DNA from: a virus
Lineage: Duplodnaviria; Caudoviricetes
DNA: 57,801 bases
Direction: 5' to 3' (one strand)
Virus record (IMG/VR): IMGVR_UViG_3300028146_000012
Span: 1 to 57,801 of that record
Each line of letters starts with the position of its first letter. The first letter of the stretch is position 1. A model generated the notes under the pieces. That model was not told where the DNA came from, did not search any database, and was given only the letters and a program-made list of their open reading frames with translations. Shown one piece after another: positions 6,340-28,669 of the stretch. Made by a program: the position numbers and the translations under genes.

Positions 6340-7961
6340 AAATCCTAAGCGTGTATGCAGAGAATTTTGCTAGTTACGAAAAACTGGAATTCTCCTTTGA
6401 TGACAAAGGTTTAGTGCTCATACATGGCGCTACAGGCAGCGGCAAGAGCACACTTTGCGATGTAATCCCTTGGATTCTATTCGGTATTACAGCAAAGAAT
6501 GGTAAAGCAGATGATGTAATTAGCTGGAATGGCGGCAATACACATGGAATGCTTGTCGTACGGGCTGGCGATAAAGATATGTGTATAAAAAGGCATCGTG
6601 GCAATAATAACGATTTAGCTTACTGGATTCTAAATGATGACATAGATGCCAACATAGCTGTAAAAAGAGGAAAGGATATCAACGATACGCAGAAGTTTAT
6701 AAATCAATTCTTAGGCCTTGACGCTGATCTCTATCTAGCAGGAGCGTACTTCCACGAATTCAGTCAAACAGCACAGTTCTTTACCACAACAGCTAAGAAC
6801 CGCAGAGAGATTACAGAGCAGCTAGTAGACTTAAGTCTACCAACGAAACTCCAAGAAAAAATCAAAGATCAAACAAAGATAAACACCATTGAAATCAATA
6901 CCCTGAACAACAATTTATTTACATTAAACGCTAAACTAGAGTTACTACAGGAATCCGCTAAAGAAGCCAAAAACAGTAATGCAATCTGGGCGCATGAACA
7001 GAGTAATCGCATATCAACAATAGAAATGAAGCGAGATACATTTGAAATCACTAGATCCCATAAAGTAAAGGCTGTAGAAGCAGAATTAGACACAATTAAG
7101 TTCAATCCTCCTATTACTTATGATATAGAACTACAAAAACTCCAGAAATCTATTCCTCCTGAATCTGTGCCGTGCGAGACATGTGGCATGCCTAAAGCTA
7201 ATGCTGAAAGACAAGAAATACTTAATGAAATTGCTGAATTGAAGCTCCAGAAACAAAATAATTCTATGCAACTGAAATCCCATCATGACCTCACAGTTAA
7301 ACTAAACGAAATTAAAGACCAAGAAAACCCATATGAAAATCAGTTAATTGAAGTCAAACACCAAGTAAACCCCCATTCCGATATACTTACAAGACTAAGC
7401 AGAGACATAAGCAAAAACAATGCATTACTAGATAATGCGATTAAAACAGAAAAAGAATTAAAGGACTCCCAACTAAATCTAGAATTACTTAGCGATGCAG
7501 TAATGATGTTTCGATCAGAACTAGTTAGAACTACAGTGAAATACTTAGAAGCTACGACAGTATCGCATTTAAGAGACTTCTTTGAAGGGGAAATCACAGT
7601 AGAGCTCGATATTCAAGACCGCGATAAGCTAGATATATCAATACGGAAAAACGGAAATGAGTGCAGCTATACGCAGCTCAGTAAAGGTCAGCGTCAGATG
7701 CTGAAGTTGTGTTTTGGGGCGGCGGTTATGGAATGCATACAACGGCATCATGCCCTCGAATTCAATCAGTTGTTTTTCGATGAGGCACTAGACGGCTTAG
7801 ACGATACGAATAAACTTCGTGCAGTTAAAATGCTAGAGACTTTGGCGTCTCGCCGTGATACAGTATACCTTGTTGAGCATTCAGAAGGCGTTAAGGCGCA
7901 TATAGATCAGAAATACTTCGTGGAGCTCATAGACGGGAAAAGTATAGTATGCCTAGCTTAA
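6336..7961 (+). CDS. sbcC: SbcC/Rad50/gp46-like SMC ATPase
   Basis: ENFASY, GATGSGKST, coiled coil with CETC zinc hook, LSKGQ signature, FFDEALDGLD, LVEH. Confidence 0.92.
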   Translation: MKILSVYAENFASYEKLEFSFDDKGLVLIHGATGSGKSTLCDVIPWILFGITAKNGKADDVISWNGGNTHGMLVVRAGDKDMCIKRHRGNNNDLAYWILNDDIDANIAVKRGKDINDTQKFINQFLGLDADLYLAGAYFHEFSQTAQFFTTTAKNRREITEQLVDLSLPTKLQEKIKDQTKINTIEINTLNNNLFTLNAKLELLQESAKEAKNSNAIWAHEQSNRISTIEMKRDTFEITRSHKVKAVEAELDTIKFNPPITYDIELQKLQKSIPPESVPCETCGMPKANAERQEILNEIAELKLQKQNNSMQLKSHHDLTVKLNEIKDQENPYENQLIEVKHQVNPHSDILTRLSRDISKNNALLDNAIKTEKELKDSQLNLELLSDAVMMFRSELVRTTVKYLEATTVSHLRDFFEGEITVELDIQDRDKLDISIRKNGNECSYTQLSKGQRQMLKLCFGAAVMECIQRHHALEFNQLFFDEALDGLDDTNKLRAVKMLETLASRRDTVYLVEHSEGVKAHIDQKYFVELIDGKSIVCLA

Positions 7962-23486: not shown

Positions 23487-24533
23487 ATGAAGATAATCCC
23501 ATCAGGCAGCACGCCGCCTATTATTCAACAAACTACAGCCAATACAGCCGCAGCATCAGAAGCAAAGGCAAGGGCAGTCGCAGTATTGCAAGGTAAAGCA
23601 CCTGCCCAAGGTCAAGCCCAGGAAACGCCTGTAGCTAACCCTAATGCTATCTCAGCAGAGGAATTATCGGCTATAACGAAACCTGCAGCAGACCCCACTA
23701 CTACCCCACAGGCCGAAGCCGCTGCGCCCGCCACAGAGGCGCCTAAAGCCCCAGAACAGCCAGACAAGGCGAGCCAGGAATGGGCTAAACTCGCCCGCCA
23801 AGAGCGCCAACTCCGCCAAAAGGCTAAAGAACAGGACCAAAAGTTCCGCCAGCGCGAAGAAGCTATCAAGGCTAGAGAAGCCGAAGCAAGCTCAAAAGCC
23901 GATTTATACCAAAAAGGATATGTCAGTTATGACAAGCTCAAAAACGATCCGCTAGGTGTACTTGGCGAGGCAGGAGTTAGCTACGATGAGATCGCAAATC
24001 AGATAATCAACCCATCTAAGATCGATCCCCGCCTTCAAGCCCATATCGATAAACTCCAAGCTAAGATTGAAAGCCTCGAGAAAGCCACTATGGAAGGCAA
24101 CGAACGCGTCACGAAACAGCAACAAGACAGCTATAACGCAGCAGTGAAGCAAATCGAAATGGACGTGCGTAACTTAGTGAAATCAGACCCGAATTTCGAA
24201 ACAGTAGCAAAGACTAACTCTACTAAAGATGTAGTAGAGCTAATCACCAAGACTTATGAAAAAGACGGCATTCTGCTAACCGTAGAAGAAGCCGCTAACG
24301 AGGTAGAGAACTACCTTATCGATGAAGCAATGAAATTAACTCGTATTGAAAAGATTAAGCGCAGACTCCAGCCTACGGCCAATAGTACTGAAGTCAAGAA
24401 GACAGCGCAAACCGCAGACACAAAAGGGAATGCTCAATCCCAAATGAAAACCTTGACTAACGCCGTATCTAGTACTCGGAAGCTGAGTGCAAGAGAGCGC
24501 GCTTTGTTAGCATTTCGAGGTGAGCTTAAATAG
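23487..24533 (+). CDS. Capsid scaffolding protein
   Basis: Ala/Pro-rich N-terminus, charged coiled coil, basic C-terminal helix; directly upstream of the capsid gene. Confidence 0.72.
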   Translation: MKIIPSGSTPPIIQQTTANTAAASEAKARAVAVLQGKAPAQGQAQETPVANPNAISAEELSAITKPAADPTTTPQAEAAAPATEAPKAPEQPDKASQEWAKLARQERQLRQKAKEQDQKFRQREEAIKAREAEASSKADLYQKGYVSYDKLKNDPLGVLGEAGVSYDEIANQIINPSKIDPRLQAHIDKLQAKIESLEKATMEGNERVTKQQQDSYNAAVKQIEMDVRNLVKSDPNFETVAKTNSTKDVVELITKTYEKDGILLTVEEAANEVENYLIDEAMKLTRIEKIKRRLQPTANSTEVKKTAQTADTKGNAQSQMKTLTNAVSSTRKLSARERALLAFRGELK

Positions 24534-24535
24534 GA

Positions 24536-24558
24536 TGAATAGGGATTGGCCTTATTCA
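24536..24558 (+). other. Intergenic hairpin upstream of the capsid RBS
   Basis: TGAATAGGG / CCTTATTCA 9-bp stem with one G.U; no U tract. Confidence 0.45.
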
Positions 24559-24583
24559 CCAAAACTTAATTAAAGGAAATACA

Positions 24584-27298
24584 ATGGCAGCAGTATATGC
24601 TAATAGTAGCAATCAAATCGCTGCGCTAAAAGAATTGTATACCGACGATAAAGAGTACATGAAGGATCTTGTCTATAAAAATTTGTAGACGTTAAACTGA
24701 GCAAAATCGGTGGAGCCTAAAGCCTTGACAGCTAAGGTAATACCGAGGTAAGATAGTAGGTAAAGAACACTATCCACCGTAACGCGTAGAATGAGAAACT
24801 AATGAACTGCATAGTATGCGAGAAAAAACTGAGAAAAGATAATACTATAGGCACTTGTCGTGCTCATAGAGGTTTATCGCCAGTACGTCGCGCATATGAG
24901 AAATCTTGGCAACAAGATCACTCCGAACAGTATGTAGAAGCTAAAAAGCAATGGGGTAAAAGGAATCCTAAGTATTTTGTAGATTATCGAAATAAAGACA
25001 TTTCTAAGAAAATAGCGCATAATTTGCGCGTTAGAATTAGACATGCCATTAATCGCGGATCTGCAATTAAAAACTTAGGTTGTACTGTACCTGAGCTTTT
25101 GGCGCATTTAGAAGCTAAGTTTGCTAAAGGAATGACTTGGCAAAACTATGGTAAATGGCACGTTGACCACATACTGCCATTATCTAGTTTTGATTTGACA
25201 AATCCTGAGCAGCTTAAGCGGGCTTGCCATTATAGCAATTTACAGCCGCTATGGGGCGCGGATAATATCCGTAAACATGCGAAATTAGACTATCATTCCA
25301 AGAGTGCTTAGCACACAAATGTGTGATGATGTACGCTGAGCTTACAGGAAACTGTAAGAAGTAGAGGATAAAAAGCCTTTACGATAACAGACTGAAAGAA
25401 AATCCCTTCCTAGCTCTTGTTCCCAAAGACGAAAGCCCTGATGGCTTCGCGGGTTAAAATACTTGCCCGCGTCTAGAGGCGCAATTGAAGTATATTCCAG
25501 TGCCTCTGGAATACGGTGAAGGTTGCCGTATTTAAATCGACCAAAAACGGTGAATGCTGAAATGCAAATACCGTGCTAAGCTGAAAAACTAAAGAATTTC
25601 AGCCAGTGTAGAGCGTAGACCTTGACAACTGCCAAAAACAAGGGCAGAATAAAATAGGTCCAAGAGTGGTTGACAATCAAAAGGATTGAAAATGTACGCC
25701 GAACTTGAGCAAAAAGTTTGTAAGCAGTGCGGAAAACCTAAGCCCTTAAGTGAGTTTAGATTTCGCACAAGGAAAGGACGTAGCAAAGGCACATATGAAA
25801 GTTATTGTAAGAAATGTGAATACGATAACAATAAAATATGGGCCGCTGCTAATAAAGAGAAACGCAAAGATTCAGAATTTGAGAGAAATCTTAAGCGCAA
25901 GTTTAATATGACTCGAAAAGACTATGACGCGATTCTTTTAGCGCAAGGAAATAAATGTGCTATATGTCCGAAGCCTAGATCACTAAGCGGTAAAGCATTG
26001 GCAGTAGATCATTGTCATACTACGTTAGCGATACGAGGACTCCTTTGTAATGAATGTAATACAGCTATTGGTCTTTTCACTGAGAGCATAGAAATATTAC
26101 AATCTGCAATTGCTTATCTCACTAAGTTCAAGAAGTTAGGATAAAAAGCCTAACGATAACAGAGTCTATCTAGACTCACTTGAACCCCATGGGTCGTTCG
26201 CATACATTCTCGAATGCGCAAAACCAACAGACAGCGACTAGTCTCGTATCGTACTTCGTGTACGTAATCCAAGACTACCAGCTTGTCACTATCACTAACC
26301 TCCTAATGGAACAGACTAAGACAAATGCAGGCGCATTCGTTGATGCTGCAAAACTCCAAATGGATGGTGGTTTTAGAAACATTACGAACAACATCGCATT
26401 TGAATTGTTCAACGATGGTACGGCAACTCGTGGTGCCTCGACTTCGGCTTCTACGCAGTCTGGCACAACCGTAGGCGGCACAGTATTGCCTCTTACGAAT
26501 GCACAGAACATCGTACAGTTCGAAGTAGGCCAGCTCCTAGTCGCTTCTAGCACTCCCGGCGGCGCTCCGTCTACAGATACAGTCCTAGTGACTGCAGTAG
26601 ACCGCGCTAACGGTATCGTAACAGGCACAGCTTCGGCTGGTAGCTTGAGCGGTAACTGGGCTATCGGCACAGGCAGTGCATACTTGACCGTATCTGGAGA
26701 CCTTCCGGCAGCCGGCGCGTCGAATACAGGCAGTTTCTTGGCTCTTTCGGGCCTTGCAGCTTGGATTCCGACGACTACGCCGAGCACATCGGATAGTTTC
26801 TGGGGTGTAAATCGTAGTGCAGACCCGACTCGTCTTGCAGGCTTGCGTTATAACGCGACTAGCCAGACGATTGAGGAAGGTATTACGAATGCACTGGCAT
26901 TCACTAACCGTGAAGGCGGCAAACCAGACCTTTGCATCATGGACTTTGCTTCATATGCAGCGCTGGTTAACGCTCTTGGCGCGAAAGTCCAGTACGTCCA
27001 GGTAAACCACGATGAAGTAGAAGTAGCTTTCGAAGGTATTACGTTTCAATCTGCGTATGGCAGAGTTACAATCCTTGCCGACAGATCTTGTCCACCCACT
27101 ACAGCATACCTATTAACCATGGCGACTTGGAAGTTGCGCAGCCTTGGAAAGGTTCCGCATATACTCACCTACGGTATGGAAGGTTTGGAAGGCTTGAGGG
27201 TCGGCAACGCTGACGCGCTCGAGATCAGGATCGGCTACTATGGTAACCTCATTTGTTCCGCTCCCGGATTTAATTGTGTCGTGCAGCTTTCAAGCTAG
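24584..27298 (+). CDS. Major capsid protein, spliced: join(24584..24676,25395..25454,25488..25517,26183..27298), 432 aa
   Basis: AAGGA SD. Exons join in frame as MAAVYANSSNQIAALKELYTDDKEYMKDLVY|KENPFLALVPKDESPDGFAG|KYIPVPLEYG|NPMGRSHTFSNAQ... Every junction has exon-U.G in P1 and a terminal intron G. The gene follows the scaffold and precedes a terminator. Confidence 0.88.
24677..25394 (+). ncRNA. Group I intron 1 in the capsid gene (718 nt)
   Basis: P1 GTCTAT|...GTAGAC with U.G; P3 CTGAGCA/TGCTTAG; P4 TCGGT/ACCGA; P7 GCGTA/TACGC; P9 CTTACAG-GAAA-CTGTAAG; ends in G. Confidence 0.9.
24802..25311 (+). CDS. Intron-encoded HNH homing endonuclease
   Basis: WHVDHILPLSSFDL...HYSNLQPLWGADNIRK; located between the P7 5' strand and the P3 3' strand, closed by GAATGA/TCATTC. 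Confidence 0.88.
   Translation: MNCIVCEKKLRKDNTIGTCRAHRGLSPVRRAYEKSWQQDHSEQYVEAKKQWGKRNPKYFVDYRNKDISKKIAHNLRVRIRHAINRGSAIKNLGCTVPELLAHLEAKFAKGMTWQNYGKWHVDHILPLSSFDLTNPEQLKRACHYSNLQPLWGADNIRKHAKLDYHSKSA
25455..25487 (+). ncRNA. 33-nt core-less group I-type mini-intron
   Basis: TAAAATACTTGCCCGCGTCTAGAGGCGCAATTG; P1 CGCGGGT|/GCCCGCG with U.G, P10 ATACTT/AAGTAT, terminal G, in-frame TAA. Confidence 0.75.
25518..26182 (+). ncRNA. Group I intron 3 in the capsid gene (665 nt)
   Basis: P1 AATACGGT|...GCCGTATT with U.G; P10 GGTT/AACC; P3 TCGACCA/TGGTTGA; P4 ACGGT/ACCGT; P7 GCGTA/TACGC; P8 CAATC/GATTG; 3' module shared with intron 1; ends in G. Confidence 0.9.
25692..26144 (+). CDS. Intron-encoded endonuclease VII-family homing endonuclease
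   Basis: CKQC...CKKC, then QGNKCAIC...LAVDHCHTT..IRGLLCNECN; the start ATG overlaps the P7 3' strand. Confidence 0.85.
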   Translation: MYAELEQKVCKQCGKPKPLSEFRFRTRKGRSKGTYESYCKKCEYDNNKIWAAANKEKRKDSEFERNLKRKFNMTRKDYDAILLAQGNKCAICPKPRSLSGKALAVDHCHTTLAIRGLLCNECNTAIGLFTESIEILQSAIAYLTKFKKLG

Positions 27299-27406: not shown

Positions 27407-28669
27407 ATGAGAACTACATGGACTCTCCAAAAAATAACAGAAGCTGCTAGTAAATGTAAGAATAGGCGTGAACTTCAGACTAAGTTCATAGGAGCATATA
27501 AAGCTGCTGCTAGACTGGACATATTACATGAACTTTATCCTGACTATGCACAAATTCAATGGACGGATGAAATGCTTAAAGCAGAAGCATCTAAGTATAA
27601 AAGTAGAGGTGCCTTTGCAGCTAACTCATCAAGTGCTTATGTAATAGCCAGGAAACGCGGTTTACTTGACATTATATGTCCACCCAAAATAAGTAGAACA
27701 CACACTAGGGAAAGCCTTACAAAATTAGGAAAACAATATAAGACTAGAACAGAATTCGCCAGAAAAGACCCAGGTGCATATAGTTCAGCACAGCGCGCTG
27801 GTCTGTTGAATGAAGTATGTCCGCCCAACATAGGCGGTACATCACAAGGTGAAGCGGAACTATTAGAATTCCTCAGATCCTTAATATCTGATTTCATAAA
27901 AAAGAAATTTAGCAATGATTATGAGTTGGATTGCTATTCAGATAGCCTTAAGCTAGGTATTGAATATAATGGGCTATATTGGCACAGCGATGCCAATCCT
28001 AAAATGTTTCCTTCTTACCACGTTAAGAAAACAAAGTACTTCGAACAGCAGGGCATACGAGTTATTCATATATGGGAACACGAATGGACAGCACGCAAAA
28101 CCCAAGTAAAAAACTATCTTCAATCTGCCTGTAGAGTAAATACAGTTCGCTTGGGCGCTAGGAAATGTGAATTTAAAGAAATACCAGCACAGCAAGCCAG
28201 AGAATTCATACAAAATGCCCACATACAAGGCAAGCCTAATCATGTAGCCTTGGCAATCGGCTGTTTCTATAAAGAGCAACTAATAGCAGCTGCCAGTTTC
28301 GGGAGACATCACAGAGACAGCACAGCAAACTACGTTCTTAATAGATTCTGCTGTTTGCCGGGGTATACAGTATCTGGCTGTCTTGCAAAGATGTCTAAGC
28401 TTGCTGCCAATAAACTAGGGCCTTTGATATCGTGGGCAGATTACTGCAAAAGTCAGGCTGGTGGTTATATAGCGGCTGGATGGATAAAAGTCAGGACTTT
28501 AAAACCAGATTATTTCTATACAGACAAACGCGGCGGCGTGATAAGTAAGCAAGCCAGAAAGAAATCTCATGTTGATACGCCTCAAAGTATGACAGAATCA
28601 GAGCACGCTAAGCTAGATGGCTTGCATAGAATCTGGGATTGTGGCAAAATAGTACTAATATTTAAATAA
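27407..28669 (+). CDS. Hef-like/Vsr-type putative homing endonuclease with three N-terminal repeats
   Basis: Three repeats of [WH]T......A.K...R..F......AY..A...G.L; ELDCY...IEYNGLYWHS; VIHIWEHEW; RIWDCGK. Confidence 0.75.
   Translation: MRTTWTLQKITEAASKCKNRRELQTKFIGAYKAAARLDILHELYPDYAQIQWTDEMLKAEASKYKSRGAFAANSSSAYVIARKRGLLDIICPPKISRTHTRESLTKLGKQYKTRTEFARKDPGAYSSAQRAGLLNEVCPPNIGGTSQGEAELLEFLRSLISDFIKKKFSNDYELDCYSDSLKLGIEYNGLYWHSDANPKMFPSYHVKKTKYFEQQGIRVIHIWEHEWTARKTQVKNYLQSACRVNTVRLGARKCEFKEIPAQQAREFIQNAHIQGKPNHVALAIGCFYKEQLIAAASFGRHHRDSTANYVLNRFCCLPGYTVSGCLAKMSKLAANKLGPLISWADYCKSQAGGYIAAGWIKVRTLKPDYFYTDKRGGVISKQARKKSHVDTPQSMTESEHAKLDGLHRIWDCGKIVLIFK

Follow-up and report, generated by a model that had tools for sequence, protein, structure and literature searches.

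The coding gap of T4 gene 60 and the mitochondrial byps are short non-coding inserts which open with a stop codon inside an essential gene and are linked to homing-endonuclease traffic, and bypass of the gene 60 type needs take-off and landing codons that match. Group I introns are described as naturally occurring cis-splicing ribozymes (PMC6155759). Fungal introns of 63-75 nucleotides (nt) in ribosomal DNA (rDNA) are reported to have the helices P1, P7 and P10 together with a pairing between intron and 3' exon (PMC3160393), and a 67-nt intron with these same elements is reported to splice in vitro only with long exons (Harris & Rogers 2011, PMC3160393). Spliceozymes are variants of the Tetrahymena ribozyme that remove an internal 100-nt segment of a pre-mRNA in trans (Amini & Muller 2015, PMC4509937), and in Faustovirus the capsid gene holds mixed introns (PMC6247863), which are large and unrelated to the element considered here. 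A search of the full-text literature turned up no natural group I intron in phages that is core-less or dependent on a helper. We have analysed a 33-nt insertion in the major capsid gene of a virus of the Caudoviricetes, contained in a 57,801-nt stretch of DNA (positions 1 to 57,801 of IMG/VR record IMGVR_UViG_3300028146_000012; hereafter the window, to which unlabelled coordinates refer). The comparative and structural evidence suggests, with a probability that we put at about 0.62, that this element is a helper-dependent group I mini-intron excised by the complete group I intron that lies downstream.

The 33-nt insertion and its group I features

The major capsid gene of the window is of the SU10 type (Pfam PF17236) and is divided into four coding pieces, all on the + strand. 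The map rests on an alignment with L001, an intronless relative that encodes P0002 and is 91% identical to the window over capsid exon 4, with the insert boundaries imposed after a U on the 5' side and after a G on the 3' side. Exon 1 (MAAVY...DLVY; 24585..24676) matches residues 1-31 of P0002, has U as its last nucleotide and is followed by intron 1, a full group I intron of 718 nt (24677..25394). Exon 2 (KENPFLALVPKDESPDGFAG; 25395..25454) leads into the 33-nt insertion (25455..25487), after which come exon 3 (KYIPVPLEYG, 30 nt; 25488..25517), intron 3, a full group I intron of 665 nt and the proposed helper (25518..26182), and exon 4, which runs from NPMGRSHTF... to the stop codon and holds the SU10_MCP domain (26183..27298). 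The insertion itself, TAAAATACTTGCCCGCGTCTAGAGGCGCAATTG, is preceded by ...GATGGCTTCGCGGGT and followed by AAGTATATTCCA..., and it opens in frame with TAA (25455-25457).

Among 8000 candidates scored in a homologue search with capsid exon 4, 2674 relatives passed E <= 0.001, and we have compared the sequences of 12 out of the best 120 of these. The insertion site is gapless in all eight homologues that span it, each of them reading ...DGFAGKYIPVPLE.., and the remaining four begin downstream of the site. FAG and KYIPVP are therefore contiguous, as a first-pass annotation of this DNA had anticipated, which identifies the 33 nt as a true insertion; none of the homologues has the 11-residue insertion that readthrough of the stop codon would produce. 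Outside the inserts the capsid gene stays open and is 85-99% identical to intact homologues. The coordinates of the insert given by that annotation, its in-frame TAA, its P1 and P10 and its terminal G were all recovered, and its observation of a real and conserved insert is confirmed. A tblastn search with exon 4 against 50,697 phage records gave zero matches.

Every part of the element can be assigned. Following a loop, the strand ATACTT (25459-25464) pairs with AAGTAT of exon 3 (25488-25493) in a P10 of 6 base pairs (bp), and the strand GCCCGCG (25465-25471) pairs with CGCGGGT, the last seven nt of exon 2 (25448-25454), in a P1 of 7 bp whose junction pair is the U.G of U25454 with G25465. 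There follow a segment TCTAGAGGCGC (25472-25482), which we call the tether and which pairs with GTGCCTCTGGA of exon 3 (25500-25510), and a tail AATTG that ends with the terminal G at 25487; exon 3 carries the partners of P10 and of the tether as well as the 5' strand of the P1 of intron 3. The element thus has the U at the 5' splice site in a U.G wobble, the internal guide forming both P1 and P10 (13 pairs) and the omega G (G25487) of a group I intron. The U.G is invariant in seven of seven copies found at this site (site E) and is also present in short inserts of the same kind, here called minis, at other sites; every mini accepts boundaries after U and after G that restore the reading frame of the homologues. 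A P3-P8 core with a guanosine-binding P7 is absent: loop, P10, P1, tether and tail occupy all 33 nt and leave none for a P7 or a guanosine site, which bears out the earlier statement that the insert has no room for a catalytic core. Searches of the mini-intron with Rfam gave no RF00028 match at the gathering score or at E up to 10.

The predicted structure is considerably more stable than expected from composition, the 97-nt segment 25440-25536 folding at -39.1 kcal/mol as compared with -24.6 +/- 3.4 for shuffled sequences, none of which (0/200) was as low. Pairing is also maintained across copies. In the seven distinct site-E sequences, the window included (31-45 nt), 97.8% of the P1 and P10 cells are paired, with compensatory change at three pairs and a single mismatched cell, in L183; the covariation score was reached by 0/500 shuffles, and slid controls pair at 30-49%. 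For P1, the exon and guide strands are CGCGGGU/GCCCGCG in the window, UGCCGGU/GCCGGCA in L083 and CGCAGGU/GCCUGCG in L085, and for P10 they are AAGUAU/AUACUU in the window and AAGUAC/GUACUU in L085. The P1 of site-B minis has a bulged U and likewise covaries.

The same type of insert recurs in related phages. We have examined the best 80 viral-contig loci for this capsid, of which 17 are interrupted and 63 are not, the latter including L060, which ends at a contig edge, and L013, whose capsid gene (L013:4001-5296; 86% identical) is uninterrupted except for one in-frame stop codon. Minis, one or two per locus, are present in 15 of the 17 intron-bearing loci and in none of the 63 uninterrupted ones. 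This confinement to genes that also hold a full intron supports the proposal, already made in the first-pass annotation, of a non-autonomous intron. The minis of the relatives measure 30-59 nt and lie after nt 66, 84, 91, 102 and 138 of the reference, the site of the window being after nt 153; the lengths listed as not being multiples of 3 are 30, 32, 37, 38, 40, 47, 52 and 59 nt, 30 being itself divisible by 3. They are built alike: an exon U is followed by a loop, in nearly all cases with an in-frame UAA, then by the P10 and P1 strands and a further segment, and a short tail leads to the final G. Pattern scans added the site-E minis of L081, L082 (identical in L084, L092 and L197), L083, L085, L087 (cut by the contig end) and L183, and the site-A mini of L271. 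The metagenome scan and the site-A viral scan gave at least 118 and at least 120 stretches, mostly chance matches, and of the stretches listed 4 and 3 respectively passed the capsid filters; the minis counted here are thus a minimum. On sufficiently long contigs each of these further minis has a full intron downstream. The inserts recur in many independent assemblies, some on contigs of 36-59 kb, and the search of related phages for longer or other minimal introns, which had been recommended, produced full-length introns at exactly the site of the window mini in three relatives (L043, L037 and L062), besides the minis there and elsewhere.

A tether to the neighbouring intron

The 3' half of the mini-intron pairs with exon 3 in a helix that adjoins the P1 of intron 3, and this tether is a new finding of the present analysis. 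In the window it has 11 bp, two of them G.U, and ends exactly at the start of the P1 of intron 3 (25510/11-25517 with 25525-25532). For each mini we have searched for the best helix, gaps excluded, that the segment following the guide can form within a space of 264-353 nt, this space being the exon together with 120 nt upstream and 120 nt from the helper. In 15 of 19 minis the helix stops 7-8 nt short of the 5' splice site of the full intron that follows, with shuffle p values of 0.0005-0.018 for those 15, and its placement is independent of the distance to the helper, which is 23, 27, 30, 40, 59, 62 or 74 nt. In fact, the register of the tether follows the position of the helper: two registers are seen at site E, with helpers 25 and 30 nt away, and the tethers match helpers at nt 89 and nt 106 at site A, and at nt 153 and nt 165 at site B. 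Covariation read from anchored tables amounts to six tether positions changed on both sides with pairing kept, and zero broken. The minimum free energy fold consists of mini P1, tether and helper P1 in 13 of 13 sequences (the window and 12 relatives), with linkers of 0-3 nt and z values of -2.5 to -5.6. Within the window the P1 helices of the mini and of intron 3, of 7 and 8-9 bp respectively, share the same end of the tether and the same polarity, with their cleavage sites distal.

A small hairpin, GCGUC-UAGA-GGCGC, had previously been drawn in this part of the insert. It is not conserved, no hairpin being present in L081, L082, L083, L085 and L183, and we have discarded it, the pairing of the same segment with exon 3 being instead the one kept through compensatory changes.

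As to the choice of helper, every tether is directed towards the intron lying downstream, which in the window is intron 3. The first-pass annotation had put forward intron 3 on other grounds, namely a P9.0-type covariation between J7/9 and the two nt before the terminal G. This holds for the full introns, in which a J7/9 of AA goes with an end UU-G, AG with CU-G (intron 1 of the window and L043) and AC with GU-G (L050 and L033), and it holds for the mini of the window, whose UU-G fits the J7/9 of intron 3 (AA, end UU-G) and not that of intron 1 (AG, end CU-G). Among the minis the two nt before the last G fit the J7/9 of the helper in 11 of 19 cases, and we have therefore dropped the match as a general rule and kept it as partial support. 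The informative cases are L085 (helper AG, mini CU-G) and L050 (helper AC, mini GU-G), because their ends differ from the common UU. Taken with the adjacency of the tether to the P1 of intron 3, the fit of UU-G with AA supports intron 3 as the likeliest helper.

Two loci depart from the simple arrangement of one mini followed by one full intron. L050:4067-4104 is an 'orphan' site-A mini whose tether fits exon positions +9..+15, L029 and L271 having a helper 7 nt beyond; its GU-G end matches the J7/9 (AC) of its only full intron, 112 nt downstream. In L040 (308-359 and 414-451), and equally in L042, two minis stand in series upstream of one full intron, the first being 52 nt long with an internal 7-bp hairpin.

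Proposed excision by intron 3 and competing explanations

On this evidence the 33-nt element would most plausibly be a variant form of group I intron, new and non-autonomous, and structurally tied to the complete intron beside it. It would keep only the substrate side of such an intron, that is the P1/P10 guide and the terminal G, to which the tether is added. The pre-mRNA would form three abutting helices, the mini P1, the tether and the helper P1, and the mini P1 could then swing into the core of intron 3, displacing that intron's own P1. A guanosine bound in P7 would cleave after U25454, and G25487 would subsequently replace it in the P7 of intron 3. P10, in which the loop of the first hairpin pairs with that of the tether helix, would hold the exons, so that exon 2 might attack the 3' splice site and be joined to exon 3, and intron 3 would self-splice afterwards as usual. 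The comparisons establish the anatomy of the element, its conservation, its covariation and its association with full introns; the splicing chemistry, the order of these events and the action of the helper in cis or in trans are what we infer.

A number of observations weigh against this mechanism. We know of no natural case of a group I core acting on the P1 of another intron. For 24584-27298, a search for sequencing runs from RNA listed none. A clean tether beside the helper is missing in four of the 19 minis (L050, L043, L085 and L038): in L043 and L085 a bulge is required, in L038 there are only 4+4 bp, and in L050 the tether points to a position free of introns, the sole full intron being 112 nt away. 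The 52-nt mini of L040/L042 pairs with the exon 18 nt before the next mini and not beside the P1 of the full intron. Eight of 19 minis, most of them at sites A and B, do not show the P9.0-type match, and UU is in any case the most frequent ending. RF00028 is unmatched in the mini, in the flanking introns and in relatives of these that lack an open reading frame (ORF). Lastly, the loci belong to related phages, so that the counts are not independent and correspond, as we count them, to about 9 distinct combinations of mini and helper.

Other explanations have to be weighed against the same data. The mini could be removed by group I chemistry that has no need of intron 3 in particular, either by self-splicing together with exon RNA or by any group I core in trans, such as intron 1 or excised intron RNA, the tether then serving for example to stabilise the P1 of the helper. 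The 67-nt fungal intron that is reported to splice in vitro only in a long exon context (PMC3160393) is a precedent for the former, and L050 keeps a mini without an adjacent helper. However, no P7 or guanosine site fits in the fully used 33 nt, the tether adjoins the P1 of the downstream helper in 15 of 19 minis and minis occur in 0 of 63 intron-free genes, and we regard this possibility as unlikely. A split capsid gene, in which translation stops at the TAA and restarts at the in-frame UUG that ends the insert, with GAGG upstream as ribosome-binding site, would give a 51-residue peptide and a 382-residue protein. By reading of the sequences, 13 of 20 minis end in an in-frame AUG, GUG or UUG; in the window, L081 and L082 an AG-rich stretch precedes this triplet by 4-8 nt, and gene calls of 382 amino acids exist, P0008 among them, which starts MKYIPVPL. 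On the other hand, seven of the 20 minis have no in-frame start, those of site B splitting a codon and others ending in AAG (L044 and the 52-nt mini of L040/L042), UAG (L183) or CUG (L085). A split gene would, moreover, require a capsid that remains viable when cut at any of five or more places in the N-terminal arm, and it leaves unexplained the compensatory changes in P1, P10 and tether, the U.G pair and the presence of minis only alongside full introns; we consider it very improbable.

Programmed translational bypass, as in T4 gene 60 or the yeast mitochondrial byps, would have ribosomes take off at GGU and land past the 33 nt. The stop codon directly after the last sense codon, the nearby hairpin and a gap as short as known ones are all in keeping with it, but the codon before resumption never matches the take-off codon: GGU is set against UUG or CUG at site E (UUG in the window), GAU against AUG or GUG at site A and CCU against UUG at site D. 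Furthermore, the sole GGC inside the insert of the window gives the wrong frame, and bypass does not account for the way in which the tether shifts in step with the 5' splice site of the following intron. The unmatched codons, and the many mini lengths that are not multiples of 3, argue against bypass and readthrough alike; bypass of the gene 60 type was rejected, our estimate for it being slightly below that for a split gene, and readthrough of the TAA was rejected as a general solution on account of the frame-shifting lengths and of the homologues, which have no such 11-residue insertion. Least credible of the explanations considered is that the insert has no function and is a scar or hitch-hiker, such as what a deletion left of a site-E intron within homing co-conversion tracts, in which case these capsid alleles would be dead or the assemblies chimaeric. 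At the same site L043, L037 and L062 do carry full introns, whose 5' ends are similar, and the data come entirely from metagenome assemblies; yet a scar would hardly recur in that many independent assemblies, including contigs of 36-59 kb, with three helices kept intact by compensatory changes and with an open frame, at 85-99% identity to intact homologues, in the remainder of the gene.

Excision by intron 3 may also be one instance of a wider arrangement, in which phage capsid genes hold a natural two-part group I system: full introns would supply the core, and 'client' introns of 30-59 nt the P1/P10 guide and the tether. We see the chances of this broader proposal as evenly divided. If true, one ribozyme would serve several introns, a group I core would be seen to serve more than one P1 in vivo, and the arrangement would parallel, among group I introns, the passage from self-splicing introns to a splicing machine used in common, as well as a testable model for introns that lose their cores and then depend on shared machinery. 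Clients would bind the selfish helper intron to an essential gene, since loss of the helper would kill the capsid, which would provide a route by which selfish introns become impossible to lose; clients may in addition keep rival introns from homing into a site already occupied. For RNA engineering, the very small module of guide and tether would then be on offer.

The full introns, the capsid gene calls and comparison with known systems

The claim that the two flanking insertions are full group I introns is upheld, each of them having its boundaries, P1/P10, U.G, omega G, P3, P7 and P8 in canonical order and an endonuclease ORF. The cores were mapped by hand because RF00028 matches neither intron, that of intron 3 by comparison with the ORF-less relatives. 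Indeed, Rfam gave no match on the window at the gathering score, only two chance matches (one to a small nucleolar RNA family and one to a microRNA family) in 24400-26500 at E up to 10, and no match on the ORF-less introns of L044, L081, L082 and L083. In intron 1, P7 is formed by GCGTA (24784-24788) with TACGC (25332-25336), and an ORF for an endonuclease VII/HNH-like protein occupies 24802-25311 (+). In intron 3 the P10 strand GGTT (25521-25524) precedes the guide GCCGTATT (25525-25532), both on the + strand, and is followed by P3 (25537-25542 with 25668-25673), P7 (GCGTA 25613-25617 with TACGC 25695-25699) and P8 (25674-25688); its endonuclease VII ORF (25692-26144, +) starts in J8/7.

Five ORF-less introns of about 200 nt from capsid genes of the relatives (L044:4195-4397; L081:5684-5889, 6886-7089 and 7328-7529; L084:4435-4635(-)) were aligned (alignment A4) and have 56 consensus pairs, 25 of them compensatory. 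The elements follow the order P1, P3, P4-P6, P7 5' strand, P3', P8, J8/7, P7 3' strand and P9, and the two conserved stretches resemble the classical R and S elements. The introns of the window belong by homology to a second type, IA-like, in which an insertion separates P7 from P3'. From one intron to another, P3 and P8 vary by compensatory changes, and the J8/7-P7' motif (TACGC or TAGTC, then N-G-R) is present in 17 of the 18 helper introns examined. The capsid gene of L081 combines four full introns of the ORF-less type with one mini, and a 249-nt intron of the window's type (L082:13720-13968) retains the opening and closing codons of the endonuclease ORF in a short MYAEL... frame and looks like a derivative by ORF deletion. 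A blastn comparison with the phage database matched only 60-80 nt of the 3' core of intron 1 (25319-25403), at 78-93% identity, to elements in 54 phage records, which include Staphylococcus and Clostridium phages; one of them sits between two terminase fragments, beside a small ORF, in a Staphylococcus aureus phage.

Public gene calls of this capsid family are cut short at introns or minis, as in P0001 (369 amino acids) and in P0008, P0010, P0062, P0109 and P0115 (382 amino acids each); the MKYIPVPL start of P0008 is a false one, provided by the NUG that ends a site-E insert, and the other four are alike in length. If the proposed system is real, it would explain this truncation, and proteins that start MKYIPVP, like the calls of 369-382 amino acids, would be artefacts of unrecognised introns. 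Directly after the capsid gene lies an ORF of 420 amino acids (27407-28669, +) that matches homing-endonuclease and HNH PHROGs (E 4e-75) and, weakly, the Mom and REase_MTES Pfam families; its product is probably a free-standing homing endonuclease adjoining the intron-laden capsid gene. A scan of genome-collection contigs found relatives of the capsid only in bins of metagenome-assembled genomes, and hence no cultured host or phage for it: these are L205, L206, L207 and L208, of which two are assigned to Candidatus Saccharibacteria, one to Acidobacteriaceae (a 360-kb contig, possibly a prophage) and one to Alphaproteobacteria.

With respect to known systems, the mini-intron shares with the gene 60 gap and the byps a short insert that opens with a stop codon, the location in an essential gene and the link to homing endonucleases, and differs from them in its unmatched take-off and landing codons. 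It resembles the self-splicing group I introns of phages, with their homing-endonuclease ORFs, in the U of the P1 U.G pair, the guide for P1 and P10, the final G, the in-frame stop just inside and the presence in an essential phage gene. Unlike these, it lacks the P3-P9 core and the guanosine-binding P7, measures 33 nt as compared with the roughly 190-870 nt of the full introns seen here, and has an extra helix to the downstream exon that adjoins the P1 of another intron. The PaSSU-type introns of fungal small-subunit rDNA (56-81 nt) likewise depend on the surrounding RNA, and their P1, P10 and intron-exon pairing are all present in the 33-nt element, in which no P7 can be drawn; the fungal introns, however, keep a putative P7, are reported to self-splice and reside in rRNA with no neighbouring full intron (PMC3160393), whereas the phage minis are about half their size, have no P7 and always lie upstream of a full intron. 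In the spliceozymes (PMC4509937) a group I core removes an intron without a core of its own, as would happen in the system proposed here, and to our knowledge such removal has been achieved only with engineered ribozymes; the spliceozymes are man-made and carry the guides on the ribozyme, while in the phage system the guide is on the substrate intron and the reaction would be natural and in cis.

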